NCBI GenBank assembly: GCA_963668175.1
Contig: OY764159.1
Location: 2,784,001-2,848,000 of the forward strand
DNA length: 64,000 nt
Source: Syntrophales bacterium
Lineage (GTDB): Bacteria > Desulfobacterota > Syntrophia > Syntrophales > PHBD01
Reading direction: 5' to 3'
Shown: piece after piece, positions 12,450 through 37,211 of the stretch
Position numbering within the stretch: position 1 is the stretch's first letter
Layout of the letters: each line of letters begins with the position of its first letter
Translations under genes and position numbers: made by a program
Notes under the pieces: model-generated
Database searches by the model: none
Told to the model about the DNA's origin: nothing
Seen by the model: only the letters and a program-made list of their open reading frames with translations

Positions 12450-12478
12450 TTGACAATATAACTATTATCCTCTATAAT
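12450..12478 (+). promoter_or_regulatory. Consensus sigma-70 promoter of effector/immunity block 1
   Basis: TTGACA-17 bp-TATAAT, exact consensus, upstream of 12594. Confidence 0.8.
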
Positions 12479-12593
12479 ATCGGTACGATAAAACACCTGA
12501 GCAAAATAGCAGGAAAGGCGTTCGGAACGATTCGTGTGATGAAGAGAGACGCAAGTTGAGGGAAAGGGTTCGGTCAGCGAAAGGCGATAAACG

Positions 12594-13148
12594 ATGAATT
12601 CTAAATTGAAGCGGCTGTTTGCATGGAAAAATCGAATTCTTAAGGGTTTCACGCTCTGGCCGACCATTGTGGTGCTATTGTATTTTTTAGAGAGGTGGGT
12701 TTTTTATTATCACGACTATGATTTTTTATTATTTGTCATATTTCTGTTCATATTTCCGGCAGTCTGTTTTATTTGTGCGCTGGTGTTGCTCGTAGTGAGA
12801 AAACCAAAGTCATCTTTATCCTTTCTTACACCCGCGTTGCTTGTGGTCTTTATGTTTTCTTCGTGGGGCGATCCTGTCAGAGATAATTACTACGCTTCAC
12901 GCCACTATGTTGAATTCCAAATCCAGAAAAGATTCTATTTCCCGGAGATGAACGAACCCGATAAGCTGCCCCCTTACAAAGAATGGCCTCTTAACAAGGC
13001 ACGGAGAACTTCAGAGTATACCATCATCTATAATTTGAAAGACTCTGTCGACGAAATAGAAAGACATAAGAAGTACATCAAGAATGGCTGCGGCTACAAT
13101 GTGACTGGAGTCGGCAAACACTTTTATATGCTGGCAGAATGTAAATAG
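12594..13148 (+). CDS. Membrane protein, putative immunity protein (copy 1)
   Basis: Three hydrophobic segments plus a soluble C-terminal domain; paralog of 13285..13862; sits directly before an effector stub. Confidence 0.7.
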   Translation: MNSKLKRLFAWKNRILKGFTLWPTIVVLLYFLERWVFYYHDYDFLLFVIFLFIFPAVCFICALVLLVVRKPKSSLSFLTPALLVVFMFSSWGDPVRDNYYASRHYVEFQIQKRFYFPEMNEPDKLPPYKEWPLNKARRTSEYTIIYNLKDSVDEIERHKKYIKNGCGYNVTGVGKHFYMLAECK

Positions 13149-13176
13149 AATGACAGAATAAAAGGAGGGCTGGAAG

Positions 13177-13281
13177 ATGGGACGGTACGGAACAGATCAT
13201 TTCTTTGTTAAAGATGAAGACAAAAAGGAAGTTGCGGCAAAGTATCTTAAAGACGCAAATGCACTCTGCGAAAGGCGATAA
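13177..13281 (+). pseudogene. Truncated 5' stub of effector E1 (MGRYGTDHFFVKDEDKKEVAAKYLKDAN…)
   Basis: First 28 codons are nearly identical to 13894.., same RBS; it ends at the duplication junction. Confidence 0.8.
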
Positions 13282-13284
13282 ACG

Positions 13285-13862
13285 ATGACTTCTAAATTGA
13301 GGCGTCTGTTTGCATGGAAAAATCGAATTCTTAAGGGTTTCACGCTTTGGCCGACCATCGTGATGTTGTCGTTTCTCTTGGAAGAGTGGGTATTTTATTA
13401 TCGCGACATTTATGATATCGGAATTCCTTTAGTCGTTATATTGGTGTTAATATTCCCGGCAGTCTGTTTTATTTGGGCGCTGGTTTTGCTCGGAAGAAAA
13501 AAAAACCGAAGTCGTCTTTATCCTTTCTTACCCCGGCATTGCCTCTGGTCTTTTTTTTATTTTCTCCATGGAGTGATCCTGTCAGAGATATTTTCTCCGA
13601 TTCGCGCCACTATGTTGAATTCCAAATCCAGAAAAGCTTTTATTTCCCGGAAATGAACGAACCCGATAAGCTGCCTCCCTACAAAGAATGGCTTATCAAA
13701 GAGCGTCATAATGTCTCTACGTATTCAATCGTTTACGATTCAAATGACTCCCTGAATGAGAGAGAAAAGAAAAAAGCAGAATTGCATGGCCCTCAACAAT
13801 GGGGTTACAGCATAAAGAAAGTTGGCAAACACTTCTACATGCTGCATGAATTTTATTATTAA
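13285..13862 (+). pseudogene. Putative immunity protein copy 2, frameshifted in an A9 tract
   Basis: ORFs 13285..13656 and 13473..13862 together align with 12594..13148; the frame changes at the A-run 13497-13505. Confidence 0.8.
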
Positions 13863-13893
13863 AACTGTTTTAAATTAGAAGGAGGGCTGGAAG

Positions 13894-15174
13894 ATGGGTA
13901 GGTACGGAACAGATCATTTCTTTGTTAAAGATGCAAACAAAAAGGACGTTGCGGCAAAGTATCTTAAAGACGCAAATGGAGACTATATTATGAACCGTTC
14001 AACCGGGCGGCCGTATGTCGTCCCGGCCGATTTTAATTTGGACGCAGTGATTGCAAAATACGAAGTCGATCCTCGGACGCTTCCCGATCTGGAAACAAGT
14101 ATGCAAGCACGCGGGGCGTCTTATGCAAAATTGTATGAGAATTTTCAACGCGGGCGGCCGGACGACTTGCAGAGATCCTATAATGGGAAAGTTGACGCCA
14201 CTTGGGTCAAGGACTTTCAGCCGGCAGCCAGCTACGTGTTCGGCGCGGCATGCGCCGCAGCAGGCTTACCCTTGTGGCAATGCAAAGCGGGCGGGGGGGG
14301 CTATAATCTTGGAACGAAAATCTTTGGAGATGGCCCCAAGAATAAAACGTCCGGCGAATTTGGCAACAATCCGGACAATGTTCAACACATCGAACAGGGC
14401 TACCGCAGTCAAACGTCTCCAGATGCTCCAAAGACGACCGGGAAATATGTTCCGGTGGAGGGGGGCGGCATCGATGCGGCGGTCAAAGCCGGGATCTATG
14501 CAGTCGAACCGGGCAATGTCCTTGGCGATATCGCAGCCAAATTTCATACCACCGTTCAAAAAATCATGGAGGCGAATCCCGATATCAAGAATCCGGATTC
14601 GATCCGCCCCGGACAGCGAATCGTATTGCCGAAAGACGACCCCTCCGGCCCCGCCGACAACAAGAAGGACCCCGATCCCGACCGGCAGGGCGCGACAGAC
14701 AAGGGAACGATCAATTCGCAACATAGCCAAAGCATCATCCATGATGGCGGGTTCACACAGATCGCCTCAAGCGCCGGCCCGGATGTTAGCGATAACACCG
14801 CTGCTTCCGCTCCTGCCGATGATGCGCCGGCGGGCTTTCCCGATGCTCCGTTGCGGCATGCGCTGGATGCGCTGGGCGTGAAGCCCCGCGATGTGCAATT
14901 CACCCCGGCGGAGGCGGACGATGAGAAAGAGACGCCGGACTCTTTCGACATCAGAGATAACGACACAGCGGAAAAAATCGGCTCTTATGCGGGAACCCCC
15001 ACCGGCTGCGAAATGACCGTGGGCGACAGGAAGGTCGTAATGGACCGGATGAGCGGTAATGACATTCACCTGCAAACGTATGCCAAAAACGACGATGGAG
15101 ATTTTGAACTCGTTGGGACAACGCGAATCGGCGACAACGACGGGATTACCGTGAGAAGGCCTTTTGCCGCATAG
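13894..15174 (+). CDS. Putative effector E1: possible Ntox44-like N-terminal domain, LysM, conserved C-terminal domain
   Basis: No signal peptide; LysM YAVEPGNVLGDIAAKFHTTVQKIMEANPDIKNPDSIRPGQRIVLP; shared C-terminal domain at 14848-15174. Confidence 0.8.
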   Translation: MGRYGTDHFFVKDANKKDVAAKYLKDANGDYIMNRSTGRPYVVPADFNLDAVIAKYEVDPRTLPDLETSMQARGASYAKLYENFQRGRPDDLQRSYNGKVDATWVKDFQPAASYVFGAACAAAGLPLWQCKAGGGGYNLGTKIFGDGPKNKTSGEFGNNPDNVQHIEQGYRSQTSPDAPKTTGKYVPVEGGGIDAAVKAGIYAVEPGNVLGDIAAKFHTTVQKIMEANPDIKNPDSIRPGQRIVLPKDDPSGPADNKKDPDPDRQGATDKGTINSQHSQSIIHDGGFTQIASSAGPDVSDNTAASAPADDAPAGFPDAPLRHALDALGVKPRDVQFTPAEADDEKETPDSFDIRDNDTAEKIGSYAGTPTGCEMTVGDRKVVMDRMSGNDIHLQTYAKNDDGDFELVGTTRIGDNDGITVRRPFAA

Positions 15175-15333
15175 TGCCGCGTCGTCCGGCGGACGCCGCC
15201 GGGCGGCGCACGGCAACGCCATGGCCGGTTAGCGGTTTTCCCCATTTGGGATACCCGGACGGCGGATGAAAGGAACCCGGGCCGGAAAAAAAGTGACGAG
15301 AGCGTGCAGGATACTAACTTTCGGAGGTGGAAG

Positions 15334-16179
15334 ATGGGACGTTTGAGGATGCCGGCCATATGCGCAGTAGCGCTTTTCATGACGATGTTGTTGTATTCGA
15401 CGGCGTCGGCCGCAGGCACCGACGTCGTTTACGTTGCGAAAGACATCGAATACGTCGGGAAAAAGACGTTACCTCTGCAGGAGGTCTTCGGCACGCCGGA
15501 GCCGTGGCATGTTACGGTCCAGGAAGATAAGGATATCGACGAATGGGATTACTTCATGGATCCCAAGGCCACGGACAGACCGGCGCGAATATGTTTCTGG
15601 GCCGATCCGGATAAGAAAGATCGGAAATGCGAAATTGCTGCGTTGAAATTATGCTTTCGTACCCCAAAGGGTCTCTCGTGCGAACCCACCTATACGTTCC
15701 AGTTTTTTGAGGACATGAAAGTTATCGATCTGAAAAAGGCCGGAAAGCCCCGCCAGGGCATTCTCTTTACCATAGTAAATAGAGGATATCACCTTAGCTG
15801 GGCGAGGCATCGACATCTCACCCTTTTCTCCATATGGGTTTACGACGAGAAAAAAGAAGCTTTCAAGAGAGCCCTTGAAGTCGCGCTCACGGAGCAGGGA
15901 GAGTTTAAATACGAGTTTCCCCCCTCCGCCAAGCTGGATGGCATCGCCGTCGGCGCCGACTTCTTTTGGGACATGAGCGATCCTGATGAGCATCGTTATG
16001 GTAAGCATTGGTATATCATCGAAATTTACAGATTGATGGGGAAGGGAATCTACAAATGGATCGGCGCGTATAGGACAGACAAAAAATACCAGAGTATGGC
16101 CGATAGCGAAGACAGTGTTATTGAACAGGAACTTGGCATCATCAGGAAGGTTGTAAGGAAAAAAGCAAAACAGAAATAG
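15334..16179 (+). CDS. Exported protein, putative immunity for E2
   Basis: RBS ggagg, Sec signal ending …STASA; stop lies 9 bp before E2. Confidence 0.7.
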   Translation: MGRLRMPAICAVALFMTMLLYSTASAAGTDVVYVAKDIEYVGKKTLPLQEVFGTPEPWHVTVQEDKDIDEWDYFMDPKATDRPARICFWADPDKKDRKCEIAALKLCFRTPKGLSCEPTYTFQFFEDMKVIDLKKAGKPRQGILFTIVNRGYHLSWARHRHLTLFSIWVYDEKKEAFKRALEVALTEQGEFKYEFPPSAKLDGIAVGADFFWDMSDPDEHRYGKHWYIIEIYRLMGKGIYKWIGAYRTDKKYQSMADSEDSVIEQELGIIRKVVRKKAKQK

Positions 16180-16188
16180 GAGTGAGAA

Positions 16189-17355
16189 ATGACAAGCAGC
16201 GAGTTCAAGCCGAGCAAATTCAAGGCAGAGGGAATTGAGGGGAACAGTATTGCAACATACTATGACTATGAGAACGGAACGAAACTGGAGATAAAGGGCG
16301 CGGTTCCTGCGGTGCGCTTTAATAACCCGGGCAATATCGCCTGCAATGATCTCAACGATAAGACGGGAAGATGGGTTTCAAGTCAGGGAGCGATCGGTTG
16401 CGCGCAAGGCCGGGCCGTCTTCCCGGACGTCGAGACGGGTTCTCAAGCGATGAGGAACAACCTTGAACGTAAATTTGGGGATTATACGGTTCGCGACATG
16501 CTCTTCGGCGAATACGAATACAACTATGGTCCCGATAAAGTGACACCCGTCAGCATCAAGAAAACGATCAGAGCCGGATACTGCCCCGAGTGGTACCCGG
16601 ACAAGAAGGGAGTCCTTCGGCGTCAGGATACGGAGTCTTACGCGCGGCTTCTCGAAAAGGGTTCCGATGCCAAGGAGACCGACGACCTCAAATCGTAGCC
16701 TATCAACGAACTCGGCAGCAAAATATTCGAGAAGGTTATTCAGAAGATGAAGACGCACGAAGGCTTCTTCAGCCCGCGTAATCAGGGAACGAAAACGTTT
16801 TACGAAAAAGATGGAAAAGTCATCAAACTGAACGAACTGGATAAGAATCTTCGGGAGGGCATTACTCCGGAAAAACCGACCATGATAGCGTATGCCAACG
16901 GCGTGCATACCGATGCGCCCGACGCGGGGAAGACTCTTGAGAATGTTGAAGCAGGATTATCTGGAAAACTGTTGCCCGCAAATATCGACACGGATGGAAC
17001 GGCCGGTTTGCTCGACGCCCCGAATGCTCCGTTGCGGCACGCGATGGCTGCTCTGGGATTGAAGCCCGAAGAAGTGCATATAACCCCGGCGGAGGCGGAC
17101 GATGAGAAGGAGACATCGGAATCCCTCGAGATCAGAGATAACGACACAGCGGAAAAAATCGGCTCTTATGCGGGAACCCCCACCGGTTGCGAAATGACCG
17201 CAGGCGACAGGAAGGTCGTGATGGACCGGATAAGCGGCAGCGACGTCAGCCTGCAAACATACGCCAAAAACGACGAAGGAGAATATGAACTCCTGGGGAC
17301 GACACGAATCGGCGACAACGACGGGGTGACCCTGCGACGGCCGTTTCCGGGATAG
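16189..17355 (+). pseudogene. Putative effector E2 (NNPGNI lysozyme-like domain + conserved C-terminal domain) split by an in-frame TAG at 16696-16698
   Basis: 16189..16698 and 16747..17355 are in the same frame; motif RFNNPGNI…F…G…Y-x-P…SYA…KTHEG spans the stop. Confidence 0.75.
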
Positions 17356-17359
17356 TGTT

Positions 17360-17742
17360 GTGATACAGGCGAATGAAGAGGAGGAAAAAATGGGGCCTGA
17401 AGAGGGAGACAAGACTCAAGAACGCATGAATGGTGAACCAAGGGAAAAAGAAGTCCCCAAAAGGGTTCTTCTAATGTGGAGACTGCTGTTGTTTGCTATC
17501 CTTGCTCTATTGTCATTACTCATGATTCAGATCTTTTATCGGTTCTGGTGTGTATCGATGATACCAACGATAGAGCGACATGACGGGCGATATAGCGGCA
17601 ATCCATGTGAATATGCTAGAGACGTCGGATCACGGACATCGCTTGTATGAAAATTAAGGCACGTATCCAGACGGCTTTAAGGAGTGATCACTTTTATCGA
17701 CAAATCGATCTGCAGTGGTTCGCTATGATGTGCAAAGGATAA
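17360..17742 (+). pseudogene. Decayed paralog of immunity gene 18133..18789
   Basis: Contains MIPTIER (vs MIPKIER), HRLY, and caaatcgatctgcagtggttc identical to the 3' end of 18133..18789; has stops and an internal deletion. Confidence 0.65.
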
Positions 17743-17842
17743 TACATTTTTCGGGTCAAGCAACAATGGTGCATGGGCATGCGTAATCCCGGTCATTGAT
17801 ATTCAGTGTATTGAAGAGAAGATTTAGGAAAGAGTGTAGAAA

Positions 17843-18073
17843 ATGAGTGGAGAGAAACAGACTACCATATGGGAACCAAAAACCTTTGATTGCATCAGAC
17901 AGAACAGTTCTATTTTTAAATCCGTTGCAGAACGGATAGGAATCCCCCCGGAAGCCCTCGCCGGCGCCATGGCAAGAGAGAATAACGCCTATAACCATCA
18001 TAGAGGCCGGGAAATATTCATGGACATATGGGCCTTAAAGTGTGTTCCGAACGTGGCGGCGTCATTTATTTAG
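17843..18073 (+). pseudogene. Truncated stub paralog of effector E3
   Basis: WEPKTFDCIRQNSSIFKSVAERIGIPPEALAGAMARENN matches the E3 N-terminus; ends after 76 aa. Confidence 0.8.
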
Positions 18074-18132
18074 GTTGCGGCAAGGGAGATTCACGGTAGG
18101 AGAAATCATAAAATCTCAGGGATGCCGAAATA

Positions 18133-18789
18133 ATGAAAATGAAGAAATCGCTGAAAGTTGTTCTGCTTTCGATAATAGGGGTCCTTTGGCTGGTCATCGT
18201 GTTGCTGTTGGCGCTTGTGACCGCCGTGGCCGATCATGAGATTGATCTTTACGCATTGTTAAGACCGCTCCCCAGCGATGACGAGATGATCGCGAATTTC
18301 TATGACAATAAGGATGACTTTGAGAAACTTGTCCAAATTTACTACACAGATCCGTCGAATCGATTTTATGGGTCTAAGGCGATGTCTACGCCGGAAGTGA
18401 AAGCCGTCATGAGGCGCGCAAAGGTCTATGGCATAGCAGGCGATGGGGATTTTTGGGTGCCTCCCGACCCTTACAATGAAGAGGCGCGCGATCGGAGTTT
18501 TCGTTCAGGTGAATTAGAAAGGCATCGTGACGGTATCGACTTTCATTACAAACATAAGCGCGTAACAGTCGGAATTGAGAAGTTCGACGATCTGCATAAA
18601 TATTACTATTACGCACCGATGATACCAAAAATAGAGCGCTACCCCGGCGAGCCGTACGATGTATTATTGACGCCTACTCATCATCATCGATTGTATAAAA
18701 GCCTGGACAGGTGGCCTGCCGATCTCCTCCCGCCCGATTGCGTTTACCGGCAAATCGATCTGCAGTGGTTCATTATGGTGTGTCGATAA
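18133..18789 (+). CDS. Membrane-anchored protein, putative immunity for E3
   Basis: N-terminal TM anchor then a soluble domain; directly upstream of E3. Confidence 0.72.
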   Translation: MKMKKSLKVVLLSIIGVLWLVIVLLLALVTAVADHEIDLYALLRPLPSDDEMIANFYDNKDDFEKLVQIYYTDPSNRFYGSKAMSTPEVKAVMRRAKVYGIAGDGDFWVPPDPYNEEARDRSFRSGELERHRDGIDFHYKHKRVTVGIEKFDDLHKYYYYAPMIPKIERYPGEPYDVLLTPTHHHRLYKSLDRWPADLLPPDCVYRQIDLQWFIMVCR

Positions 18790-18876
18790 TAATATTTTCA
18801 GAGCGTGCAACAATGGTTCACGGACATTTGTAAGATAAATTATGACGAAGCGAATTGGATGAAGGAGTTTGGAAAA

Positions 18877-20454
18877 ATGGCCGAAAATGAGAAGTATACC
18901 AAATGGGAACCGAAAACCATGGATTGCATCAGACAAAACAGTTCCATCTTTAAATCCGTTGCCGCCCGGATGGGAATCTCCGCGGAAGCCCTCGCCGGCG
19001 CCATGGCGAAAGAGAACAACCAATACCAACTCAATACAGCGGTGGAAGTATTCAAGGACAGATGGGCTTTAGGAACGATATCCGGTGAAATAGTCGACCA
19101 TGCTCAATGGTCGGCCCAATATGACGCGGTGAAGAAGTCGAACTGGATAGATAACGCAGACAGATTAAGAAAGATAAGAAACCCCATATTGGTTGACCTC
19201 GGCCCTTTCAACCTTCAGGGTGCAACCGCCATCCGGGCCTTGATTAGATATATCCAAGCCAATCCCCATTCGGATCCTTTTGATCTGAAACAGTATCAGG
19301 GAGACTATGCAAAATTCCTGTCCACCATAGCAGGTCCCGATGCGGCGCCGTGGAATACTCTGAACGCCGAAGAGAGCGTAAGGGTGAATGCAATCGTCTG
19401 GGGCATGCAGATAAAACAAGCCCAGGACTGGTTCGAAAAGAAGAAACGGGGCGACGAGCGGTTCGCTAAACTTTGGGACGGGAAGCCGCAGAAGGAAAAA
19501 GACGCATTCTACGCGCAGTGGTGCTTTTTCGGACCTCGAAAAATGGAAGAGAGGTTCGTGGATAATATTAACGACAGCAAGCATCGTGGGACATACAAAC
19601 CGGAACTCGGTGAAGGCGGTTCGGACGTTCATAAGAATGCGGGGGCTATCGGGATCGCGATGGACAATTTCGGCTACGCGGCTGAAGGCCAGAATTCAGA
19701 CTCGGAAAAGACGGCATCCGCCGCCGGCGCTCCCGCCTCCCCATCCAACGCACGTATTACATATAACACCGACGGCACGGTCACCGTCAACAAGGGCGGC
19801 ACGCTCTGGGAAATCTGCGAAGAGCAGAGGAAAAAGGGCAATCCGATCACCCCCGACGATTTGAGGTTGAAAAACAAGAACATCGAGGATGTGGACGATA
19901 CGAGGATTCCCGTCGGCACGAAATTGGTCATTCCCAGACGCCAAGAAGCTGACTCCGCCATTAGCACTGGCGACAAATCTAACGCCGCTGACTATCAGGG
20001 CCATCGTGAAGATCGTAGAAATCTTTTCGGCGGCAGCGATTCAAGCCGCGGAGATATTTACAATACGATTGAAAATGAAGATGACAATCCCCGGGTCATC
20101 TCTAGTGACCCTTCCGTCAGTTCTCCATTGCAGCACGTAATGGATGCGCTGGGAGTGGCGTCCAAAGATGTGCATTTAATCCCGGACGGGGACAATGAAA
20201 ATCCAATGCCGGGGTCCTACAGCATTATGGATAAGAGTACATCGAAAGAAATCGGTTCTTGTTTGATGACTACGACCGGTTGCGAAATGACCGCAGGCGA
20301 CAGGAAGGTCGTGATGGATAAGATAAGCGGCAACGACGTCAGCCTGCAAACATACGCCAAAAACGACGAAGGAGAATATGAACTCCTGGGGACGACACGA
20401 ATCGGCGACAACGACGGGATTACCGTGAGAAGGCCTTTTGCAGGGCTAGCCTGA
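18877..20454 (+). CDS. Putative effector E3: lysozyme-like N-terminus, LysM-like domain, conserved C-terminal domain
   Basis: RBS aaggag; ALAGAMAKEN…DLGPFNLQ lysozyme-like spacing; GGTLWEIC…IPVGTKLVIP; shared C-terminal domain at 20125-20454. Confidence 0.8.
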   Translation: MAENEKYTKWEPKTMDCIRQNSSIFKSVAARMGISAEALAGAMAKENNQYQLNTAVEVFKDRWALGTISGEIVDHAQWSAQYDAVKKSNWIDNADRLRKIRNPILVDLGPFNLQGATAIRALIRYIQANPHSDPFDLKQYQGDYAKFLSTIAGPDAAPWNTLNAEESVRVNAIVWGMQIKQAQDWFEKKKRGDERFAKLWDGKPQKEKDAFYAQWCFFGPRKMEERFVDNINDSKHRGTYKPELGEGGSDVHKNAGAIGIAMDNFGYAAEGQNSDSEKTASAAGAPASPSNARITYNTDGTVTVNKGGTLWEICEEQRKKGNPITPDDLRLKNKNIEDVDDTRIPVGTKLVIPRRQEADSAISTGDKSNAADYQGHREDRRNLFGGSDSSRGDIYNTIENEDDNPRVISSDPSVSSPLQHVMDALGVASKDVHLIPDGDNENPMPGSYSIMDKSTSKEIGSCLMTTTGCEMTAGDRKVVMDKISGNDVSLQTYAKNDEGEYELLGTTRIGDNDGITVRRPFAGLA

Positions 20455-20764
20455 TGCCGGGACAGGCACAGGCCGTCTCAATATTCGCCGCGGCTCAGAA
20501 AGAATGCTCGGTTCAAAGGGATATGTGAAAATGAAAAGCAAGGTATCTCCGCATCGCATTCTTTTGTCTGTAAAGGGCAAATGACCTCATTGTTTTGGCC
20601 CCTGGGGGCTTACCAAAGTTTTTGGAACACCCGCGACGATGGTATTTTACCGAATCAATAATTTACCCCGATACGAGTCGAATTGATGGAAAAATGAATA
20701 TGGGAGGAGCAACGAGAGATTTTTTTATTCGTTGATCAAGCGGGAAGGCATAGGAGGGAAAAAA

Positions 20765-22258
20765 TTGAAAACGAAAGCGATCTTGATAGTGCTGATCTGT
20801 ATTGCCGCCTGCGCCGGCTATCAACAACCTGCCAGGGCATCCGGGGACGCCGCCGTTACATGCCGGAGCGCCAAGGAGTGCGTCGATCGGGGAATTCGCA
20901 AATTCAATGAACGGCAGTACGACTCGGCCATCGCCTATTATACGCGGGCCATCGCGCTTGATCCCGAATATGCCGCCGCGTACGATCGCCGCGCGAATGC
21001 CCATGCCCTCAAACAGGACTATCGCAGCGCCATTGCCGATTATACCGAGGCCATTAGAATCGATCCCGGGTTTGCCGAGGCCTACCATGGGCGCGGGCTT
21101 GCCTACGCGAAAACAGGGGATAGCGACCTCGCCATTGCCGATTACACGGCGGCCATCGACCGCAAGTGGCGGGATGTCGTTCAGTCCTACTATTATCGCG
21201 GCAATGCCTATTATAATGTGGGGAAGAACGATCTCGCCGTTCGCGATTACGATGAAGTCCTTCGCATCGATCCTAAAGCTGCCAACGCCTGCTTCAATCG
21301 CGGCCTTGCATACAAGAGGATGGGGGACGACGCCAGGGCCGCTGCGGATTTCGACAGGGTGATCGCCCTCGATCCGAAACACGCGGAGGCGTACTATTGG
21401 CGCGGCGCTATCTTTCAGAAAAGAAAGGATTACGACCGTGCCGTCGCCGATTTCAGCCAGGCCCTTGCCGTCAATCCGCAGCACGCCAAAGCCCGTCTCG
21501 TCCGGGGGAATGCCTATGCCGAAAAAGGAGACTATAACACCGCCATTGCCGATTATACCCAGGTCATTCTGATGAATCCCGCTTTTGCAGATGCAAGTCT
21601 TAACCGCGGACGCGTTTACATGGAAACCGGGGACGATGCCAGGGCCGTTGCCGATTTCACAAGGATGATCACCCTCGACCCGAAGCACGCGGAGGCGCAC
21701 TATTTGCGCGGACGTATCTATCAGAAAAGAAAGGATTACGACCGTGCCATCGCCGATTTCAGCCAGACCATCGCCTTCAATCCGCAGCACGCGAAAGCCC
21801 GGCTCGCCAGGGGGAATGCCTATGCCGAAAAAGGCGACTATAACAACGCTATCGCGGATTATACCGAGGTCATCCGGATGAATCTTCCGGATAAGTACAA
21901 GGTGGGGGTTATCGTTAATCGCGGCCTTGCATACGAGAAAATGGGGGACGATGCCGGGGCCATTGCCGAGTTCACGAGCGCCATCGCCCTCGATCCGGAA
22001 AATGCGGCCCCATACTATGCCCGCGGGCGCAGCTATCTTAAAATATGGGATTTCGACCGCGCCTTTACGGATTTCAATAAGGCCATTGCCGTCAATCCAC
22101 AGTATCGGGAAGCTTACATGGCCCGCGGCGCTTCCCTCCTGGGGAAGGGGAAATGTGCCGAGGCATGGCGGGACGTGAGGCACGCAGAAGGACTGGGCGA
22201 GATACCAAATCCAAACTTCTATAAGTTCCTCAACGAAAAATGCCCGCCGCAACAGTAG
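20765..22258 (+). CDS. Exported TPR-repeat protein
   Basis: About 13 34-aa TPR units (RG-x-AY…A-x-ADY/F…P); N-terminal signal or lipoprotein-like sequence; TTG start after ggaggg. Confidence 0.9.
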   Translation: MKTKAILIVLICIAACAGYQQPARASGDAAVTCRSAKECVDRGIRKFNERQYDSAIAYYTRAIALDPEYAAAYDRRANAHALKQDYRSAIADYTEAIRIDPGFAEAYHGRGLAYAKTGDSDLAIADYTAAIDRKWRDVVQSYYYRGNAYYNVGKNDLAVRDYDEVLRIDPKAANACFNRGLAYKRMGDDARAAADFDRVIALDPKHAEAYYWRGAIFQKRKDYDRAVADFSQALAVNPQHAKARLVRGNAYAEKGDYNTAIADYTQVILMNPAFADASLNRGRVYMETGDDARAVADFTRMITLDPKHAEAHYLRGRIYQKRKDYDRAIADFSQTIAFNPQHAKARLARGNAYAEKGDYNNAIADYTEVIRMNLPDKYKVGVIVNRGLAYEKMGDDAGAIAEFTSAIALDPENAAPYYARGRSYLKIWDFDRAFTDFNKAIAVNPQYREAYMARGASLLGKGKCAEAWRDVRHAEGLGEIPNPNFYKFLNEKCPPQQ

Positions 22259-22516: not shown

Positions 22517-23374
22517 ATGGCAGCAGAAAACAAGAAGAACGATAATGAAAAGACGTTAAAAAAGGGATTTGAAATATTTAATTTTGTGAAAGATATCGCA
22601 AGCAAGACCGGTGACATCCTTGCGACCGGAAATTCCACCGTAAAATTAATCAAAATGGGAGTGGACGGTTCAATGACGGTACTACAGAGTATTCCAAAGT
22701 CGCTACTGGAAGGAGAATTAGTTCCTATTGGCCTTGTAAAAGAACTTGGCACATGGGGTGCTTCCTCCGCAGTCGGCGAGACGATCATTGTAACGGCGGG
22801 CGGTTTGGCATCCGCCGGAGCAGCGACCATTTTAGGGGCGGCAACGCTGACCGCAGCGGCAGGCGCGCTATACGGTGCTTTATGGCAAAAGGTGTATGAG
22901 CATTCGAAGGAGAACCCTATATGGGAAGGCGCGCCCGAGATGAAATACGACGGTATGTATCTGCATGATCCCTCCAAATCCGGAAACGAGATACCAAATG
23001 AAGATGCCATTATGAAGAACTATTCCCTGAACGATCCCGGCAAGCCATTGAAGCATGCATTGACCGCGCTGGGATTGAAACCCGACGAGGTGCATCTAGC
23101 TCCGGCGGCGAGCAATGGGAATTCGACGTCGGAAGCCCTCGCTATAAGGGATAAGGACACATCGGAAAAAATAGGCTCCTGCGTGATGACGCCTGGCGGC
23201 TGCGAAATGACCGCGGGCGACAGGAAGGTCGTGATGGACCGGATAAGCGGCAGCGACATTCATCTGGAAACGTATGCCAAAAACGACGATGGAAAATATA
23301 AACTCCTGGGGCAGACAAGAATCGGCGACAACGACGGGATCACCGTGAGAAGGCCGTTTACGGGGCTCGCCTGA
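22517..23374 (+). CDS. Putative effector E4: Gly/Ala-rich hydrophobic N-terminal region + conserved C-terminal domain
   Basis: IIVTAGGLASAGAATILGAATLTAAAGALYGALW; shared C-terminal domain at 23045-23374; no signal peptide. Confidence 0.78.
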   Translation: MAAENKKNDNEKTLKKGFEIFNFVKDIASKTGDILATGNSTVKLIKMGVDGSMTVLQSIPKSLLEGELVPIGLVKELGTWGASSAVGETIIVTAGGLASAGAATILGAATLTAAAGALYGALWQKVYEHSKENPIWEGAPEMKYDGMYLHDPSKSGNEIPNEDAIMKNYSLNDPGKPLKHALTALGLKPDEVHLAPAASNGNSTSEALAIRDKDTSEKIGSCVMTPGGCEMTAGDRKVVMDRISGSDIHLETYAKNDDGKYKLLGQTRIGDNDGITVRRPFTGLA

Positions 23375-23604: not shown

Positions 23605-24507
23605 ATGCCGGCTTTTAAACCGTTTACATGGATTGCGGTTCTCATCGTCATCGCGGTTATTCCCGCGCCTGGATTTGCCGCGCCGCATATCGTTCCGCTT
23701 GACTCCGTGTTCAAAGTGACAGAGGTGCCCTACGAAGGCGGCGAATTAATGATGCCCGGCAAGGATAGCAGCGGCAAAAAGAACGGCGATGGGGAGGAAT
23801 CCTTTTCTCCCGGCTGGAAGAAGCTCTTTCTTAGCGTACCGGGCAGCAAGCGATCATACTTGTTGGACGGAACATGCGTCCATTATGATCGGAACGCAAT
23901 CGACCTCGGCGACGGGCGCATCGTTATGGCGTGCCAATCGGGAGGCAACCATTGCTGCAGCACATACGTGAGCCTGCTGAAGGACAGTAAAAAAGGCACG
24001 CTGAAGGTCGCCGGTTCGAGAACGATCATTCATCCCGAGCTGGGCATAGACAAAGAAAGCATCGGGCCTGTCGATTCCCGGGGAAACCTGAGCATCGAAG
24101 TTCACGGATTTACCGATCGATACGACGACGATATCGAAAAAGCGAGCCACGAACCTTCTTTCATCTATTACATCAAGATCCTTAAGACCGGCCATGTGGC
24201 CGTCGACAGGGACGTTAAAGCGTACGAGAACATCATCGCGAAGCTCAAAACATCGTTGTCGAAATCGTACGATTTCGAGATGTATGTGCAGCTTGTCTTT
24301 TATAACCGTCTTCTCGATCTGAAACTTTCCGAAAACGCCTATCTGAGCAAAGCCTCGGCGTCCGAAAAAGGCGTTGCCGCCCGCGGCGTCAAGTGGATAT
24401 TTGAAGAAATGCCGTTTCTCAGGATTATCAACGACGATGATGGTTTTGCTCTGAAGCCGACCGCCCCGATCTCAGGCCATGACGCTGTTCAAAAAAAGAA
24501 ACGCTGA
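23605..24507 (+). CDS. Exported hypothetical protein (SGGNHCC motif), possible orphan immunity protein
   Basis: RBS ggagg, signal peptide ending …PGFA; follows E4 with no effector downstream. Confidence 0.65.
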   Translation: MPAFKPFTWIAVLIVIAVIPAPGFAAPHIVPLDSVFKVTEVPYEGGELMMPGKDSSGKKNGDGEESFSPGWKKLFLSVPGSKRSYLLDGTCVHYDRNAIDLGDGRIVMACQSGGNHCCSTYVSLLKDSKKGTLKVAGSRTIIHPELGIDKESIGPVDSRGNLSIEVHGFTDRYDDDIEKASHEPSFIYYIKILKTGHVAVDRDVKAYENIIAKLKTSLSKSYDFEMYVQLVFYNRLLDLKLSENAYLSKASASEKGVAARGVKWIFEEMPFLRIINDDDGFALKPTAPISGHDAVQKKKR

Positions 24508-24791
24508 ACAGTGAGGGCATTCGCCCTGCATGGACAATTTAGACCATTTGCGCGGACACGACGGCCCGGGAAAGGGCAGGGCTGGTAGCGTTCCAAGGCA
24601 AAGAGCAAACAACGCCGACTGCGCCCGCAATGCCTTTCTGACGGGCGTTACGATAGATTGAGGAATGCCGGCCGGGAGAGTCGGAAAATCCGCCGCCATT
24701 TAATCGGCCGGCCGATCCCTACCCAAAAGCCGGTGCAATTGACATGCTGAAATCGATCCTTACATTAAGGGTAAGGGGAAGGAGGTGCGTT

Positions 24792-25301
24792 ATGATCGAT
24801 TCAGCGAATGCCATCTCCACGAATCCGGTTTTAGCCGCGATCGCCGCAAACGCCCTGCAAATACGAGCGATTGCCGATCTCCCTCCAACTTACAGTGCGC
24901 AGTTTTCGGATACGGTGACTGTTTCCCGGGCGGCAACCGATTTGGCCGATGCCCTGAAGACTCAAAATACCGACGATTTTGCCCGGCAATTGGCGAACGC
25001 TGCCGATCAGGCGGCAGCGGGAACAACTGCGACGCAGGATCAGGTGCAGGCGAACGATCGACTTTCTCTGGACACGGCTGAGCAATTTCTGGATACGGTG
25101 GCGGCTGAAGACGTTTTGGCAAACGACCTCCAGGCGCAGAAAGACAGGGATTATGCCCAACTGTTGGCGGATATTGCGAATCTGACGGCAACGGAAACGG
25201 TCGCGACCCAAAATATGGAGATCGACAGCGCCGCTTATTCCATGGCGTCGGCGAACAGATACCGGCAGAGAAGGGTCTCTCTGAAGGACCTGAAAATCTA
25301 A
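24792..25301 (+). CDS. Ala/Asp/Gln-rich hypothetical protein
   Basis: RBS aaggagg; low-complexity helical sequence with SDTVTVS motif. Confidence 0.65.
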   Translation: MIDSANAISTNPVLAAIAANALQIRAIADLPPTYSAQFSDTVTVSRAATDLADALKTQNTDDFARQLANAADQAAAGTTATQDQVQANDRLSLDTAEQFLDTVAAEDVLANDLQAQKDRDYAQLLADIANLTATETVATQNMEIDSAAYSMASANRYRQRRVSLKDLKI

Positions 25302-27956: not shown

Positions 27957-27985
27957 TTGACATCTATAGGAAAATATATTATAAT
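27957..27985 (+). promoter_or_regulatory. Consensus sigma-70 promoter of WG-repeat/E5 operon
   Basis: TTGACA-17 bp-TATAAT, exact consensus. Confidence 0.8.
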
Positions 27986-28055: not shown

Positions 28056-29168
28056 ATGCACAAGATGAACGGAAGAAATACAGGGGCGAACAGGATTATA
28101 CCAATCATTTTGATCGTATGGGTATGCATCGCTGTGTCCGCAGGCGACGCAGGATCAACCGACAGCTATTTCCCTTGCCCCGTTTATGTCAACGCAGGTC
28201 TCAAGGGCAAGCTCCGTCACGTGAAAAAATGGGGTTATATGGACATCCATGAAAAGATCGTCATCAAGCCGCGTTTTAAGGAAGCGTGGAGTTTCAGCGA
28301 AGGGCTGGCCCATGCGATGAATGCCAGATATAAATACGGCTTCATCGATCTTAAGGGGAATTGGGCCGTCAAGCCGCAATTCGACAACGTGAGAAGTTTC
28401 CGTGAGGGCATGGCGGCGGTTTCAATCAAAAGGAAATATGGGTTTGTCGATAAAACGGGCCGGCTCGTCGTCCCGCTTGTCTATGATAACGCTATGGACT
28501 TCCGCGAAGGCCTGGCCCTAGTTGCGGACAACGACAAATGGGGTTTTGTAGATAAAACGGGCCGGGTGGTCGTCCCGCTCATATACGACGAACATGTCTC
28601 GTGCTTCCGCGAAGGTCTGGCCTGTTTTAAGGAAAACAAGAAATACGGTTTCATGGATAAAAAAGGGCAGGTTGTCATTCCGGCGCAGTTCGACAGGGTC
28701 TTGTATGGCTTCAGCGAAGGCCTGGCAGGCGTTCAGATTAACGGGAAATGGGGTTTCATCGACCGCTTCGGCCGGATCGTCATCGAGCCGAAATTCGACA
28801 GGGCCGGGAGGACGGTCATGTTCCGGGAAGGGCTTGCCGCCGTGAAAATCGACGGCAAGTGCGGCTTCATCGACAAGACGGGAGCTATCCGGATCAAGCC
28901 CGATTACAGTTATGCGTTCGACTTTTCCGAGGGGTTCGCGACGGTGACTTTTGATGATGGTACGGACGCTTATATCGACAAATCGGGAAACATCGTCATC
29001 AGGATTGAGGAAAATAAGGGGACTGCATATTGGGAAGGCGATTTCCGCAAAGAAGGCGTAGCGAAAATATGTTTTAACGATTCCAAATATTCGGCAGAGG
29101 ATTGCGGATTCATCAATCGTCAGGGGATATTTGTCATTCAACCTAAATACAATTCCATTCATAATTAA
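28056..29168 (+). CDS. WG-repeat exported protein, putative immunity for E5
   Basis: Repeated F(S/R)EGLA-x-V…K(W/Y)GF(I/V)DK-x-G units; signal peptide; ends 24 bp before E5. Confidence 0.9.
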   Translation: MHKMNGRNTGANRIIPIILIVWVCIAVSAGDAGSTDSYFPCPVYVNAGLKGKLRHVKKWGYMDIHEKIVIKPRFKEAWSFSEGLAHAMNARYKYGFIDLKGNWAVKPQFDNVRSFREGMAAVSIKRKYGFVDKTGRLVVPLVYDNAMDFREGLALVADNDKWGFVDKTGRVVVPLIYDEHVSCFREGLACFKENKKYGFMDKKGQVVIPAQFDRVLYGFSEGLAGVQINGKWGFIDRFGRIVIEPKFDRAGRTVMFREGLAAVKIDGKCGFIDKTGAIRIKPDYSYAFDFSEGFATVTFDDGTDAYIDKSGNIVIRIEENKGTAYWEGDFRKEGVAKICFNDSKYSAEDCGFINRQGIFVIQPKYNSIHN

Positions 29169-29192
29169 TTTCTTTGACCAAGGAGGAATAGA

Positions 29193-30419
29193 ATGGCGGG
29201 AACAATTTACAGCAATTTGCAGACCCAAAAACAGAAAGACTGGTACCGTGGCATTGCTCTATTCGGAGACAAGAAAGAAATACCGCTGGATGTGATCAAT
29301 GCCGTGCTCCTGCTCGGGAATCTCGAATCTCGCGGTTTTAGACCGGAGGCGGAGAGCGGTACCGGGGCTTCGGGACTGTTTCAGTATATGGAAGGAAGGT
29401 GGACGGACATCACAGACAAAAATAAAAAGAATAAATTGTATTACGATACTTACAACCAAATGATCGATTGGGGATACAATCCAGCGAGACGCGAGAGGGA
29501 GAATCCGGCCGATCAGGTAATCGTCGTATACGCGGAGGTAGCGAGTTATACGAAGGAATTCAATTCAGCGACTAAACCCCGTGGAAAACGCAACTCGGAT
29601 TATAAGAATGCGTGGAACGCTTACGATAAGGCATGTAAAGGATTGGGGAAGGACTGCCCCACCGATCCCTATGAGAGATACATCCTGTTTGTCCAGGCGG
29701 CTCACCACGGACCGAGCAATATTCAGGAAGTGATAACCGGCTGGAAAAAGCAAATACTACCCAATATCAAGGACAATTTAGAATTTCTGAAATCGAAACG
29801 CAAAGAATGGAACCTGAAGGTCTCCCAGGACGATACGGAGGCTGAAACCGACAAGGTTGCCGAGGCGGCAGAACGGGATTCCGGGCGGACAGCGTCGGCT
29901 GCGCAACCGGACGATGCGTATTCGACCGAAGACAGGAAGAGAAAAGACCTCGCTGCGGGAGACGACGCCGAAGCTGAAACGGCGAGAAGAGGCGACGATG
30001 CGGGCGACCGGGATACCGACGATTCCATGAACAGACAGGGCGGCGTTCCCGCGACGGCCGCGAACGGTTCGTCCGTGGGCATTCCCGATGCTCCATGGCG
30101 GCACGCGATGGACGCGCTCGGAGTAACGTCCAGTGAGATACATTTAACCCCAGCGGATAACAGGAATTTAACGTCGGACTCCTTCGAGATCAGAGATAAC
30201 GACTCATCGGAAAAGATCGGTTCTTGTATGATGACTCCCACCGGCTGCGAAATGACAGCGGGCGACAGGAAGGTCGTGATGGATAAGATAAGCGGCAACG
30301 ACGTCAGCGTGGAAACATACGCCCAAAACGACGATGGAGAATATGAACTCCTGGGGACGACAAGAATCGGCGACAACGACGGCATAACGGTGAGAAGGCT
30401 GTGGACGGGGTTTGCGTGA
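29193..30419 (+). CDS. Putative effector E5: SLT/lytic transglycosylase-like domain + conserved C-terminal domain
   Basis: LESRGFRPEAESGTGASGLFQY matches the SLT ES…GA-x-GLFQ motif; acidic linker; C-terminal domain at 30093-30419. Confidence 0.82.
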   Translation: MAGTIYSNLQTQKQKDWYRGIALFGDKKEIPLDVINAVLLLGNLESRGFRPEAESGTGASGLFQYMEGRWTDITDKNKKNKLYYDTYNQMIDWGYNPARRERENPADQVIVVYAEVASYTKEFNSATKPRGKRNSDYKNAWNAYDKACKGLGKDCPTDPYERYILFVQAAHHGPSNIQEVITGWKKQILPNIKDNLEFLKSKRKEWNLKVSQDDTEAETDKVAEAAERDSGRTASAAQPDDAYSTEDRKRKDLAAGDDAEAETARRGDDAGDRDTDDSMNRQGGVPATAANGSSVGIPDAPWRHAMDALGVTSSEIHLTPADNRNLTSDSFEIRDNDSSEKIGSCMMTPTGCEMTAGDRKVVMDKISGNDVSVETYAQNDDGEYELLGTTRIGDNDGITVRRLWTGFA

Positions 30420-34011: not shown

Positions 34012-34445
34012 TCGGTGCCTCCTTCAGCTTGACATGATGCATCGCCGGCGGGATCGATCCGCGGTCTCGACGGCGCACGGCGACGGCAAAACCGGCCGTG
34101 CCGCAGTGCGTAACTCCTGGGGCGGTTACGCCGGCGACTTGCCGGCATGGTATCATATTAAGCCGATTTTGTAAGCTCCTTAAGCTGCCGGCACATGTCG
34201 CAGACGAGGGCTCCCGACCGGCAGGGCGGGAGCGCGTTGTTGCGCCGGAGGGGCTCTCCGCGCTTGTCCGGCTGACGGCGGGTACGGCCCATGCCGGCGG
34301 TAACCGGTTATCCGGATAACCGCGAAAACGTTCGGTTCCGCCTATCGCTTCCAAAACAGACATGCAGGCAATTTGTAATGCATGATGATTCTTTTGCAAT
34401 TCCCCTAATGTCGGTATGTTATAATTATATTATACCTTATTCTTA

Positions 34446-34474
34446 TTGACATTAATGGTAAAATATATTATGAT
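34446..34474 (+). promoter_or_regulatory. Sigma-70 promoter of WG-repeat/E6 operon
   Basis: TTGACA-17 bp-TATGAT inside a ~290-bp region paralogous to about 27810-28100. Confidence 0.75.
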
Positions 34475-34544
34475 ATCGATATGATAACATGGCAATGCCG
34501 GACAGGACAGAAGGCGTTCGGACCGTTGGCCGTTTATAAGGGAG

Positions 34545-35864
34545 GTGAACAAGATGAACGGAAGAAATAGATGGGCGAACAGGATTATACTCATTATTCT
34601 GATTACATGGGCATGCCTCTCTATCCCCGTGAGCGAAGCAGGAGCTGACGAGAGCTCTTTCCCTTGCCCCGTCTTCCTGAAAAGCGATGGCCGCAATATT
34701 CCCGGCATTGGGAGATACCGGTGGGGATACATCGATATCAAGGGGAACATCGTCATCAAGCCGCGTTTTGTTGATGCGGTGCATTTTCGCGAAGGCCTGG
34801 CGGCGGTGATCGTCAAGGGTAAAGGATATGGATATATAGATGTGAAAGGAAAGTTTGTCATCGATCCGGCTTTCGATCGGGCACAGGATTTCTGGAAGGG
34901 GATGGCCCGCGTCAAGATGAAGGGCAAATGGGGCATCATCGACAAGACCGGGCGGTTCGTCATTCCGCCCGCATACGATCATGTCAACGTTTTCAGGGAA
35001 GGCATGGCCGCGGTTATGGCCGGTGACAAGTGGGGCTTCGTCGACGAGACGGGACGGATTGTCGTTCCGCCCTTATACAAGCAAGTTGAATATTTCAACG
35101 AAGGCATGGCCGCGGTTATGGTCGGCGACAAGTGGGGCTTTGTAGACAAGACGGGGCGGACGGCGATTGAACCGGTGTTTTCATCGGCAGGAAGTTTCAG
35201 CGAAGGCTGCGCGGCCGTAATGATCGACAAAAAAGCAAAATTCATCAATCGTCTCGGGGAAAAAACGATTGCCCGGGAATATGAGGGTGCGGGAGGTTTC
35301 AACGAAGACATGGCCGCAGTCAAGGTTAACGGCAAATACGGCTTCATCAACAGAGCGGGCGACATGGTTATTCAACCGGAATTCGATGAGGTTCATTTTT
35401 TTCATAATGGCCTGGCGGCGGTCAGGGTTAACGGCAAATACGGCTTCATCAACAGAGCGGGCGACATGGTTATTAAACCCGAATTCGACGACTATGAATC
35501 GTTTCATGAGGGCCTGGCGGCGGTTGTTATAAAAGAAAAATGGGGCTTTGTTGACGTGACGGGCAGGCTGGTCGCCGCGCCGCAGTTCGATCGAGTACGG
35601 AGTTTCAGCGAGGGGCTGGCCGCGGTATACGACGGCAGCGATGAAATCCGTTATATCGACAAGTCCGGAAAAATCGTAATCCGCAATAAGCATAAAATCA
35701 CCGACGGCGGCTGGTTGGGAAATTTCGGAAAAGACGGTGTGGCCAAAGTCTGTACCGACTTTACCAGCAATGGTTATTTGGGATGCGGATTCATCGACAG
35801 ACAGGGAAACTTTGTCATCAAGCCGAAATTTACATCAACGAGTTATGGACGAGAAAAAATTTAA
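34545..35864 (+). CDS. WG-repeat exported protein, putative immunity for E6
   Basis: About ten WG repeats, signal peptide, paralog of 28056..29168. Confidence 0.9.
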   Translation: MNKMNGRNRWANRIILIILITWACLSIPVSEAGADESSFPCPVFLKSDGRNIPGIGRYRWGYIDIKGNIVIKPRFVDAVHFREGLAAVIVKGKGYGYIDVKGKFVIDPAFDRAQDFWKGMARVKMKGKWGIIDKTGRFVIPPAYDHVNVFREGMAAVMAGDKWGFVDETGRIVVPPLYKQVEYFNEGMAAVMVGDKWGFVDKTGRTAIEPVFSSAGSFSEGCAAVMIDKKAKFINRLGEKTIAREYEGAGGFNEDMAAVKVNGKYGFINRAGDMVIQPEFDEVHFFHNGLAAVRVNGKYGFINRAGDMVIKPEFDDYESFHEGLAAVVIKEKWGFVDVTGRLVAAPQFDRVRSFSEGLAAVYDGSDEIRYIDKSGKIVIRNKHKITDGGWLGNFGKDGVAKVCTDFTSNGYLGCGFIDRQGNFVIKPKFTSTSYGREKI

Positions 35865-35876
35865 GGGAGCAAGGAA

Positions 35877-37211
35877 ATGGCAGCATTATACGACAGGTTG
35901 GACGCGGAACAGAAGAAGGTTTACGACAAAATCGTTGCGTTCGGAAAATCGAAAGAGTTTTCAACGGAAGATATCAATATCGCCCTGCAGATCGCCTATG
36001 TGGAGTCCGAATTTGGAAAATTGAAGGACAAAGAAGGTGAAGATGCACCAAAAGGCCTCTATCAATATTCCGAAAGACACTGGAAGGACAGACAACGCCC
36101 CGGCTGGTCGCAAGTCGGCAAGGAAGTCAAAGATATTCTTTCCTCCTGGGGTTATACGAAAGATCCGAAACGTCCTGAAGGTAATACAGATCCTGAATAT
36201 GAAAAAGGCACCGTCAACATTTTTCAGGAAAAGCAGGACGATCAGATAGCGATGTTCTATGCAGAGCTGAAAATTTACACGGATAGATTCAAGAAAGGCG
36301 TATCCGATCCGGCTTATAATAAAGTCTGCCGGAATATGCAATGCCCGACGGATCCATACAGCCGGAAAGCCTTGTATATTGAGGCGACGCACCACAGTGC
36401 CGATAATATCGGGGAAGTTCTCAACGGCTGGAAAAAGAAAGTCCAGCCCAATTTGATGGATAATTTGAATTATTTAAAAAAGAACGCAGTCAAGTGGGAG
36501 AAGAAAATCTCCCAGGACGATACGGAAGCTGCAACAGACAAGGTCGCCGAGGCGACGGAGCGGGATTCCGGGCGGACAACCCCGGCCGGGCAACCGGTCG
36601 ACGCGTATTCAACCGAAGACGGGACGAGAAAAGACCTCGCTGCGGGAAACGAGGCCGAAGCCGAAACGGCGAGAAAAGGCGACGATGCTGGCGAAAGGGA
36701 TGCCGACGATTCCACGAACAAGCGAGGCGGCGCTTTCAAGTCTGCCTCGAACGGTTCGTCCGTGGGCATGCCCGAAGCTCCATGGCGTCATGCGATGGCG
36801 GCGTTGGGCGTGAAGCCCGGCGATGTGCAATTTACAGACTGTTGAAAAACGTCCATCTGTTGCGTTGCGCCGTAAGCCTCGTCATTCGACATACGTCTAT
36901 GTATACCTCATTCCTCGGCTTTTGCGCGCCTTACATCTGGACATTTTTGAACAGCCTGCGTGCCCCCTGCATAGTAGGGGGACGCGCCCCCCGAATGGGG
37001 AGTTCAAAATCGAGTTTTTCAACAAGCATTTTACGCAGACGGCTGCGAAATGACCGCAGGCGACAGGAAGATCGTGGTGGATAAGATAAACGACTCCGAC
37101 GTGTATGTGGAAACATATGCCAAGAACGACGAAGGGGATTTAAAGCTTCAGAAGACCGTGAGAATCGGCGACAACGACGGGATAACGTTGAGAAGGCCGT
37201 TTGCCGCTTAG
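35877..37211 (+). pseudogene. Putative effector E6 (SLT-like), C-terminal domain disrupted by an insertion
   Basis: VESEFG…KGLYQY motif; paralog of E5; ORF stops at 36845 inside the insertion; the domain resumes at 37041 (GCEMTAGDRK…RRPFAA*). Confidence 0.82.
36835..37027. mobile_element. MITE-like non-autonomous insertion
   Basis: Inverted repeats cagactgttgaaaaacgtcca (36835) and tggacatttttgaacagcctg (ends 36958), 18/21 match; second end-like tttttcaacaagc at 37015-37027; interrupts E6. Confidence 0.7.

Follow-up and report, generated by a model that had tools for sequence, protein, structure and literature searches.

Six genes on the forward strand of the 64,000-bp stretch of Syntrophales DNA analysed here (the window), designated E1 to E6, encode the same C-terminal domain (CTD) behind N-terminal parts of five unrelated types. 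An earlier note on this DNA had located the six genes and read them as the effectors of an interbacterial toxin arsenal, each encoded behind an exported or membrane-bound immunity protein and delivered by way of a C-terminal secretion tag. The genome that holds them (G000) is closed, 4.57 Mb long in one contig and 100% complete, and a CTD profile search recovered nine copies from it: the six in the window and three more, E7 to E9, in a second cluster (cluster 2; G000:C1:2143522-2153093). The upstream partner genes of E1 to E7 are called I1 to I7.

Four of the six window effectors, and seven of the nine in the genome, are intact. E1 (13894..15174) joins a weak Ntox44-like N-terminal domain, a LysM domain (residues 202-246) and a linker to its CTD (14848-15174); E3 (18877..20454) has an N-terminal domain that may be SLT-like, a LysM domain and a CTD at 20125-20454; E4 (22517..23374; CTD 23045-23374) contains one long hydrophobic segment in its N-terminal domain; and E5 (29193..30419) combines a lysozyme/SLT-like N-terminal domain with an acidic linker and a CTD at 30093-30419. 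All six genes do share the domain, as had been claimed, but that all six proteins end in it holds for these four: open reading frame (ORF) 16189 (E2; 16189..17355) stops at an in-frame TAG (16696-16698) ahead of the encoded CTD (17029-17355), and the frame of E6 (35877..37211), a paralogue of E5, stops at 36845 after 21 residues of CTD, the last 56 codons lying at 37041-37211. A 188-bp element with terminal inverted repeats (36839..37026), resembling a miniature inverted-repeat transposable element, has replaced part of the E6 domain. Among the six N-terminal parts only those of E5 and E6 are related (32%, E 2e-31), the four linkers that were checked are rich in acidic and small residues, and a hydropathy heuristic (not SignalP) detected no signal-like or hydrophobic N-terminal segment in any of the nine effectors, all of which agrees with the architecture first described.

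Counted from its first helix up to the stop codon, the CTD is 108-109 aa long; it is acidic in composition and ends in the alignment in a ...GDNDGITVRRPF-type motif. Identity to the E1 CTD is 63-74% for the four other whole window copies and 63-85% among the eight whole genomic copies. Of 8000 candidates scored in a search of longer proteins, 33 proved to carry the CTD, five of which come from G000's own contig, and in all 33 the domain ends at most two residues from the C-terminus. Ten N-terminal reference types cover 31 of these proteins, the remaining two being fragments, and eight types are left once E5/E6 and E8/E9 are merged. When C-termini were compared all against all, the CTD family was one of ten with at least three unrelated N-termini, the other nine being signalling-like domains by inspection; a common C-terminus behind unrelated N-termini exceeds chance. 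The domain is under purifying selection, with a mean nonsynonymous divergence (dN) of 0.113 vs a mean synonymous divergence (dS) of 0.482 over its core (51 codons, 36 pairs), values that can be distorted by the identical runs of up to 85 nt found between copies. Those runs in turn suggest exchange between CTD copies.

With no sequence or fold family matched, the CTD appears to be a previously undescribed domain. Searches of Pfam, PHROGs and the ESM Atlas returned no match, an absence that does not exclude a family, and NCBIfam gave two chance matches only (E 0.08 and 0.12). An AlphaFold2 model from eight sequences (pLDDT 77) consists of one helix and an open beta-meander of eight strands. In the fold search made with it the best Z was 6.9, with none of 48,161 chains at a Z of at least 8, and Foldseek found nothing at E<=0.001 in the PDB or viral libraries. 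The observation that the tag could not be recognised has held up, and no characterised non-secretion family emerged from the family and fold searches. Literature searches found no prior description of the CTD system.

The gene order is equally regular. All nine genomic effectors follow a gene with a signal-like or membrane segment (by a similar filter, 834 of 3419 genes qualify genome-wide), and the partner-to-effector gap in the window is 9-258 bp; the variable pairing noted in the window extends in this way to further copies, three in number. The intact membrane protein I1a (12594..13148), 62% identical to the gene before E7 (I7), is the candidate E1 immunity protein. It lies one gene further up than had been supposed, the gene directly before E1 being its duplicate I1b (13285..13862), frameshifted in an A-run near 13500; with this qualification an exported or membrane gene does precede each of the six. 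I2 (15304..16179, probable start 15334) bears a signal peptide and belongs to no known family, and I3 (18133..18789), anchored in the membrane at its N-terminus, is the candidate E3 immunity protein. I4 (20732..22258) is an exported protein with 12 TPR repeats and has the loosest link to its effector, across the 258-bp gap, while I5 (28056..29168) and its paralogue I6 (34545..35864) are exported WG-repeat proteins with 8 and 10 repeats. All of these genes are on the forward strand, as is one for a further exported protein of no known family (23605..24507), which has no effector behind it and is a possible orphan immunity gene.

Partner type tracks toxin subtype: the related I1 and I7 lie ahead of E1 and E7, both E5 and E6 have a WG-repeat gene as their partner, and at metagenome locus L019 an E6-type start is preceded by a shortened WG gene. 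The stated association of SLT-like effectors with WG-repeat genes applies to E5 and E6 but not to E8 and E9, which match SLT in Pfam and follow non-WG partners. We also note that behind each of two other WG-repeat genes of G000 (G000:C1:1652855-1655200 and 1693075-1698088), within one or two genes, is an exported protein with a similar 'ARTMEFG' motif, which we take to be hydrolase-like.

Several of the N-terminal domains are of kinds expected to act on the cell wall. Pfam SLT matches lie above cut-off in E8 and E9, NlpC/P60 was found in another CTD protein (P0003), and LysM is present in E1, E3 and E7. E5 and E6 share an invariant Glu-Ser pair (E45-S46 in E5) and a GL-Q motif, and a fold search with the model of E5 returned lysozyme-superfamily or wall-degrading enzymes in 18 of its first 20 rows (four of the labels being our assumption), at only Z 4.4-5.6, within the background of the tool. 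Foldseek with the same model gave nothing at E<=0.001, and sequence searches of solved structures with E1, E3 and E5 alignments gave nothing significant. The E3 N-terminus is SLT-like by language-model features (0.93; 140/256 shared), which is a lead only; the NNPGNI motif of E2 is presumably one of lysozyme-like proteins; and E4 is a candidate membrane-active toxin. Sub-threshold Ntox44 matches occur in five of six E1-type CTD proteins. Ntox44 is annotated as a predicted RNase; the membrane partner and LysM domain of E1 point to an envelope target, and the two are unreconciled. The available text of PMC3482391 lists Ntox44 among all-alpha toxin domains.

The same toxin-like domains are found shuffled onto other tails. 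The CTD is missing from five of 11 E1-type homologues, which end instead in an RTX region (P0043), a glucosaminidase, one unassigned region and two signal-like tails. One CTD-less homologue has a tail that we take to resemble type I signals, and P0040 joins an E1-type domain to what we presume is a tail like the C-terminal signals of type IV secretion systems (T4SS). A Ralstonia protein of 1947 aa (L041) starts with an E1-type domain and also contains RTX and HCBP domains; in Rhizobium (L042) hlyD is followed by a gene for a small anchored protein and then by an E1-type toxin domain. In Microbulbifer, hlyC and a gene for a small membrane protein precede an E3-type gene, and both non-CTD E3 homologues (P0045, P0046) are RTX proteins. 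The CTD profile matched none of the other tails of E1- and E3-type homologues. Since E1- and E3-type domains head RTX/type I proteins elsewhere, the CTD appears to occupy the position where an export signal normally sits. A comparable sharing and exchange with RTX N-termini is described, in the available text, for Smlt3024, a tested toxin of the Xanthomonas-type T4SS (X-T4SS; PMC6759196). The Rhizobium locus, on an unannotated Rhizobium etli plasmid (L042 3852-12519), is apparently split by a transposase-like ORF.

From its distribution, the CTD seems to be restricted to one narrow lineage. It was found in one of 339 genomes of the class and was missing from the other 338, and HMMER, run without filters against 1.84 billion representatives, gave 16 matches, 14 of them real and close and two repeat artefacts; the latter, weak long matches (P0015 and P0016) that align by repeats, were dropped as CTD proteins. 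Pattern scans of GTDB, one with 72 candidates and one with 89, confirmed no CTD locus, viral contigs, plasmids and phages gave no CTD match, and a metagenome scan found two short loci among 313 candidates. Metagenomic relatives hold many diversified CTD copies. Plasmid searches with E2 and I3 found no match; the E3-type domain is present in one of 339 class genomes, and, among 401 genomes of the phylum, the E1-type domain gave one weak, stop-containing match besides G000.

The loci bear signs of turnover in the form of duplicated partners, effector stumps and orphan partner-like genes, as is typical of polymorphic toxin loci. A 29-aa stump of an E1-type N-terminus (13177..13263, forward strand, 86% identical) has a like stump before a partner gene in cluster 2, and a decayed duplicate (17677..18046, forward strand) comprises the end of an I3-type gene and the first 68 codons of an E3-type gene. 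The interruption of E2 is absent from four homologues (P0006, P0019, P0020, P0024). Across 15138-17160 the window is matched without a difference by contigs from runs X1 and X3, both of one sample that may be the source. Amber read-through was rejected because the 50 tRNA genes listed by ARAGORN include no pyrrolysine tRNA. The element in E6 has 28 blastn matches across G000, a few of them near full length. The region of cluster 2 (G000:C1:2140691-2155789; L001, L002) contains three partner-effector pairs, a duplicated partner, an orphan partner-like gene, a gene interrupted by an insertion sequence (IS) and an FRG-domain gene; lying behind an XRE-type helix-turn-helix (HTH) gene and an ORF that we take to be replication-initiator-like, it looks like a decayed mobile element.

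A shared promoter-like motif stands at all five operon heads (window 12450, 27957 and 34446; G000:C1:2142611 and 2151104), the next-best genomic matches being at least 10 bits lower. At 12450..12478, before I1a, it follows a near-consensus sigma70-type promoter (TTGACA-17-TATAAT), and promoter-like boxes accompany it before I5 (27957..27985) and I6 (34446..34474), all on the forward strand. Near-consensus -35/-10 boxes occur at three operon heads and 33 times genome-wide. Around the first cluster, a terminator-like hairpin (~12190-12235) and two short membrane-protein ORFs (11597-12148), presumably similar to ATP-synthase accessory genes and the first of them without a Pfam match, lie just ahead of it, and a 185-aa alanine/glutamine-rich ORF of no family (24744-25301) separates it from the gene for a flavoprotein exported by the twin-arginine (TAT) route.

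On balance, and irrespective of the machine, we favour the reading of these genes as toxin-immunity pairs whose effectors carry an export tag at the C-terminus. The Pfam SLT and NlpC/P60 matches, the RTX-heading E1- and E3-type domains, the duplications and the stumps all lend support to the polymorphic effector-immunity system that was first suggested. The system would be a lineage-specific arsenal of antibacterial polymorphic toxins, in which each operon would encode an exported or membrane-anchored immunity protein first and a cytoplasmic effector second. The variable N-terminal domains would attack the envelope of neighbouring cells, mostly as peptidoglycan hydrolases and in some cases probably as membrane-active toxins; that they are toxic and are neutralised by their partners seems likely. 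The constant acidic CTD is probably an export tag, the handle by which one machine would recognise all effectors, and the toxin domains may have been recruited from the RTX/type I pool with the compact CTD in place of the RTX tail.

The delivery machine had been predicted to be encoded elsewhere. The only injection machine in our inventory of G000 is an unlinked Francisella-like type VI secretion system (T6SS; G000:C1:160174-183562), for which, as the carrier, the evidence is mixed. By Pfam the locus encodes VipA, VipB, TssE/F/G/K, DotU, IglE and a ClpV-like protein, with a short 173-aa VgrG-like gene beside a separate 541-aa hub-like gene; no clear Pfam match underlies the names hub, VgrG and Hcp, which were assigned from position and inspection, and a PAAR-like gene was found by tblastn with the gene of a relative. 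The wider region (G000:C1:155369-183562; L004-L006) adjoins the T6SS to a set of PAAR-like, methyltransferase and radical-SAM genes. G000 has no VirB4, VirD4/TrwB, VirB10 or TraG-type ATPase, even with stops read through (PF03135, PF02534, PF03743, PF10412 and PF19044; 0 matches). An RTX-type type I secretion system (T1SS) was not found either: TIGR01843 (HlyD) gave 14 matches, none over cut-off and in neighbourhoods that read as Emr/Mac/RND-type by inspection, pattern searches found no HlyB-sized exporter and no called gene with at least two RTX repeats, and PF00353 and PF06594 had no match in the effectors. The phage-type sheath PF17482 of extracellular contractile injection systems had 0 matches, and VipB one only. 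One FlhA, one secretin and four pilus-type ATPases are also present; flagellar and type II secretion (T2SS)/pilus export were set aside as routes for the CTD because they use N-terminal signals. G000 also encodes exported proteins with what we take to be a PEP-CTERM-like end (G000:C1:2133320, 2157742, 2159863, 2164189 and others), a second C-terminal sorting signal.

We place the T6SS first because the other machines are excluded, and assign it the role of carrier only tentatively. The most specific form of this proposal, in which the CTD is a C-terminal T6SSii loading tag that re-routes RTX/type I toxin domains, with a polarity the reverse of that of covalent T6SS trafficking domains, is more doubtful. 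A number of observations weigh against the preferred reading or against the T6SS as its route. The T6SS hub is present in 14 of 339 class genomes (VipB in 53) vs the CTD in one, so that 13 hub genomes lack the CTD, and no second CTD genome was found. The CTD clusters lie ~2.0 and 2.6 Mb from the T6SS, with no VgrG, PAAR, Hcp or adaptor gene nearby; none of the top matches to the shared promoter motif lies upstream of the T6SS; and hhalign of the CTD against T6SS-locus proteins gave a probability <=0.4% in 10 of 10 tried. Covalent T6SS trafficking domains are N-terminal in the available text of bioRxiv 10.1101/2021.10.07.463556. Homologues of T6SS-locus genes of genome G209 lie scattered in G000, and they lack the CTD. 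On the side of the toxins, two of nine effectors (E2 and E6) are broken, the Ntox44 match is below cut-off and missing for E1 itself, E2 and E4 have no family, and two other WG-repeat genes of G000 have no CTD gene behind them, so WG repeats alone are no marker of immunity. An origin of the CTD from a T6SS spike part found no support in the profile comparisons, nor did co-regulation with the machine through the promoter motif, given the gap of at least 10 bits to the next-best matches.

The scattered homologues of T6SS-locus genes (G209, G192) lie at G000:C1:2134522-2135964, 2300124-2302136, 2409518-2411176, 2553464-2554297 and 181655-183562; one has a Scabin-like ADP-ribosyltransferase match and none has an obvious immunity gene. 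These may be real substrates of the T6SS, perhaps directed against eukaryotes.

The layout of the operons, which is that of X-T4SS and RTX/T1SS substrates, also fits an orphaned arsenal, in which the CTD would be the tag of a T4SS or T1SS since lost, or carried on a mobile element outside the assembly, and the operons would be decaying. The two broken effectors, the frameshifted partner copy and the IS inside cluster 2 are consistent with such decay. The position of that cluster behind an XRE-type HTH gene and a presumably replication-initiator-like ORF and a GC content of 50-51% vs 55.8% genome-wide also speak for this reading; P0040, with its E1-type domain and presumed T4SS-like tail, also suits a T4SS origin. 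A complete one-contig genome without a trace of the T4SS proteins searched for, seven intact effectors, many diversified copies in metagenomic relatives, and the lack of CTD matches in plasmids, phages and viral contigs all argue against it, and we consider it unlikely.

We hold it to be rather improbable that the proteins are bacteriocin-like toxins that exit by lysis, vesicles or a non-classical route, the CTD serving to bind or enter the target cell. No machine is linked to the CTD loci, and colicin-type toxins and pesticin likewise lack signal peptides and have envelope-located immunity. The open beta-meander of the model would suit a binding domain, and the weak fold rows include phage fibre tips (Z ~5, within background). 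No lysis gene was seen beside any operon, however; the place of the CTD is taken in homologues by RTX export tails; and a receptor-binding domain would be expected to diversify, whereas the CTD is conserved across unrelated cargo. That the effectors are not weapons at all but surface proteins or enzymes that remodel the wall of the producing cell, with regulators or anchors encoded upstream, is very improbable: SLT, NlpC/P60 and LysM also occur in housekeeping autolysins, and in the RTX protein FrpC the N-terminal domain is reportedly the binding site of FrpD, with an adhesion-related role (PMC5233953), but these effectors lack signal peptides, include non-hydrolase types, are absent with their CTD from 338 of 338 other class genomes, and show frequent duplication, stumps and loss.

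If the export-tag reading with the T6SS as carrier is correct, the T6SSii-like machine of a syntrophic anaerobe would have gained an antibacterial arsenal complete with immunity genes; a literature search on type VI secretion toxins in Syntrophales found no paper. If the T6SS is not the carrier, this closed genome would need an export route outside those searched. Antibacterial toxins with C-terminal recognition tags are substrates of X-T4SS and type I systems, both lacking in G000. The binding partner of the CTD would reveal either a new mode of T6SS loading or an unrecognised export route, and a portable tag of 110 aa would lend itself readily to reporter assays. Further assets of the loci are eight types of toxin and new families of candidate immunity proteins (WG-repeat, TPR and several unnamed), with a breadth limited to one narrow lineage.

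To place the system among those already described, we compared it first with the effector and immunity proteins (X-Tfe/X-Tfi) of X-T4SS, the bactericidal T4SS of Xanthomonadales and the precedent originally proposed. The likeness in layout is clear: in the available text of PMC8740702 and PMC6759196 the immunity gene lies upstream and the N-terminal toxin is often a wall hydrolase, toxin domains are common to RTX proteins (PMC6759196), and a shared C-terminal domain, XVIPCD, has about 110-120 aa. An upstream exported partner and an N-terminal toxin-like domain, together a criterion for X-Tfe, were found for nine of nine genomic effectors. The likeness does not extend to the tag or the machine. 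According to the available text of PMC8740702, XVIPCD combines two helices with three strands, ends in a glutamine-rich tail and binds VirD4. The CTD is modelled, at pLDDT 77 and with no clear fold match, as one helix and eight strands; it has no glutamine-rich tail, and G000 has no VirB/VirD4 genes. The XVIPCD profile PF20410 had no match over cut-off in G000, where its single weak match (E 0.036) lies away from the CTD, and none at E<=1 in 28 CTD proteins.

RTX/T1SS systems (the FrpC/FrpD type and the Smlt3024 homologues) resemble the CTD loci in their homologous E1- and E3-type N-termini and anchored upstream partner, and in combining the lack of a signal peptide with C-terminal export information; they differ in that the CTD effectors have no RTX repeats or HCBP domain and that G000 has no HlyB-type transporter, HlyD above cut-off or RTX protein. 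The analogy with X-T4SS appears limited to layout, and the CTD proteins, judged by their sequences, seem to be neither X-Tfe nor RTX/T1SS substrates.

The Francisella T6SSii shares with G000, here known from its genes, IglE, the short VgrG-like and hub-like genes and unlinked effectors of similar size. Francisella secretes effectors encoded outside its T6SS island (OpiA and OpiB; PMC5924787), for which the available text of that paper describes no common C-terminal tag or immunity pairing. RHS, CDI, MafB and evolved VgrG/PAAR toxins have, in the available text of PMC3482391, variable toxin domains, cognate, duplicated and orphan immunity genes and recombination stumps, as here, in the opposite polarity, with the trafficking domain N-terminal and the toxin C-terminal. 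With its constant module, its unrelated toxin-like domains and its matching, orphan and duplicated partners, the CTD system is best filed, on present comparisons, as a variant of the polymorphic toxin systems with an apparently undescribed C-terminal domain.

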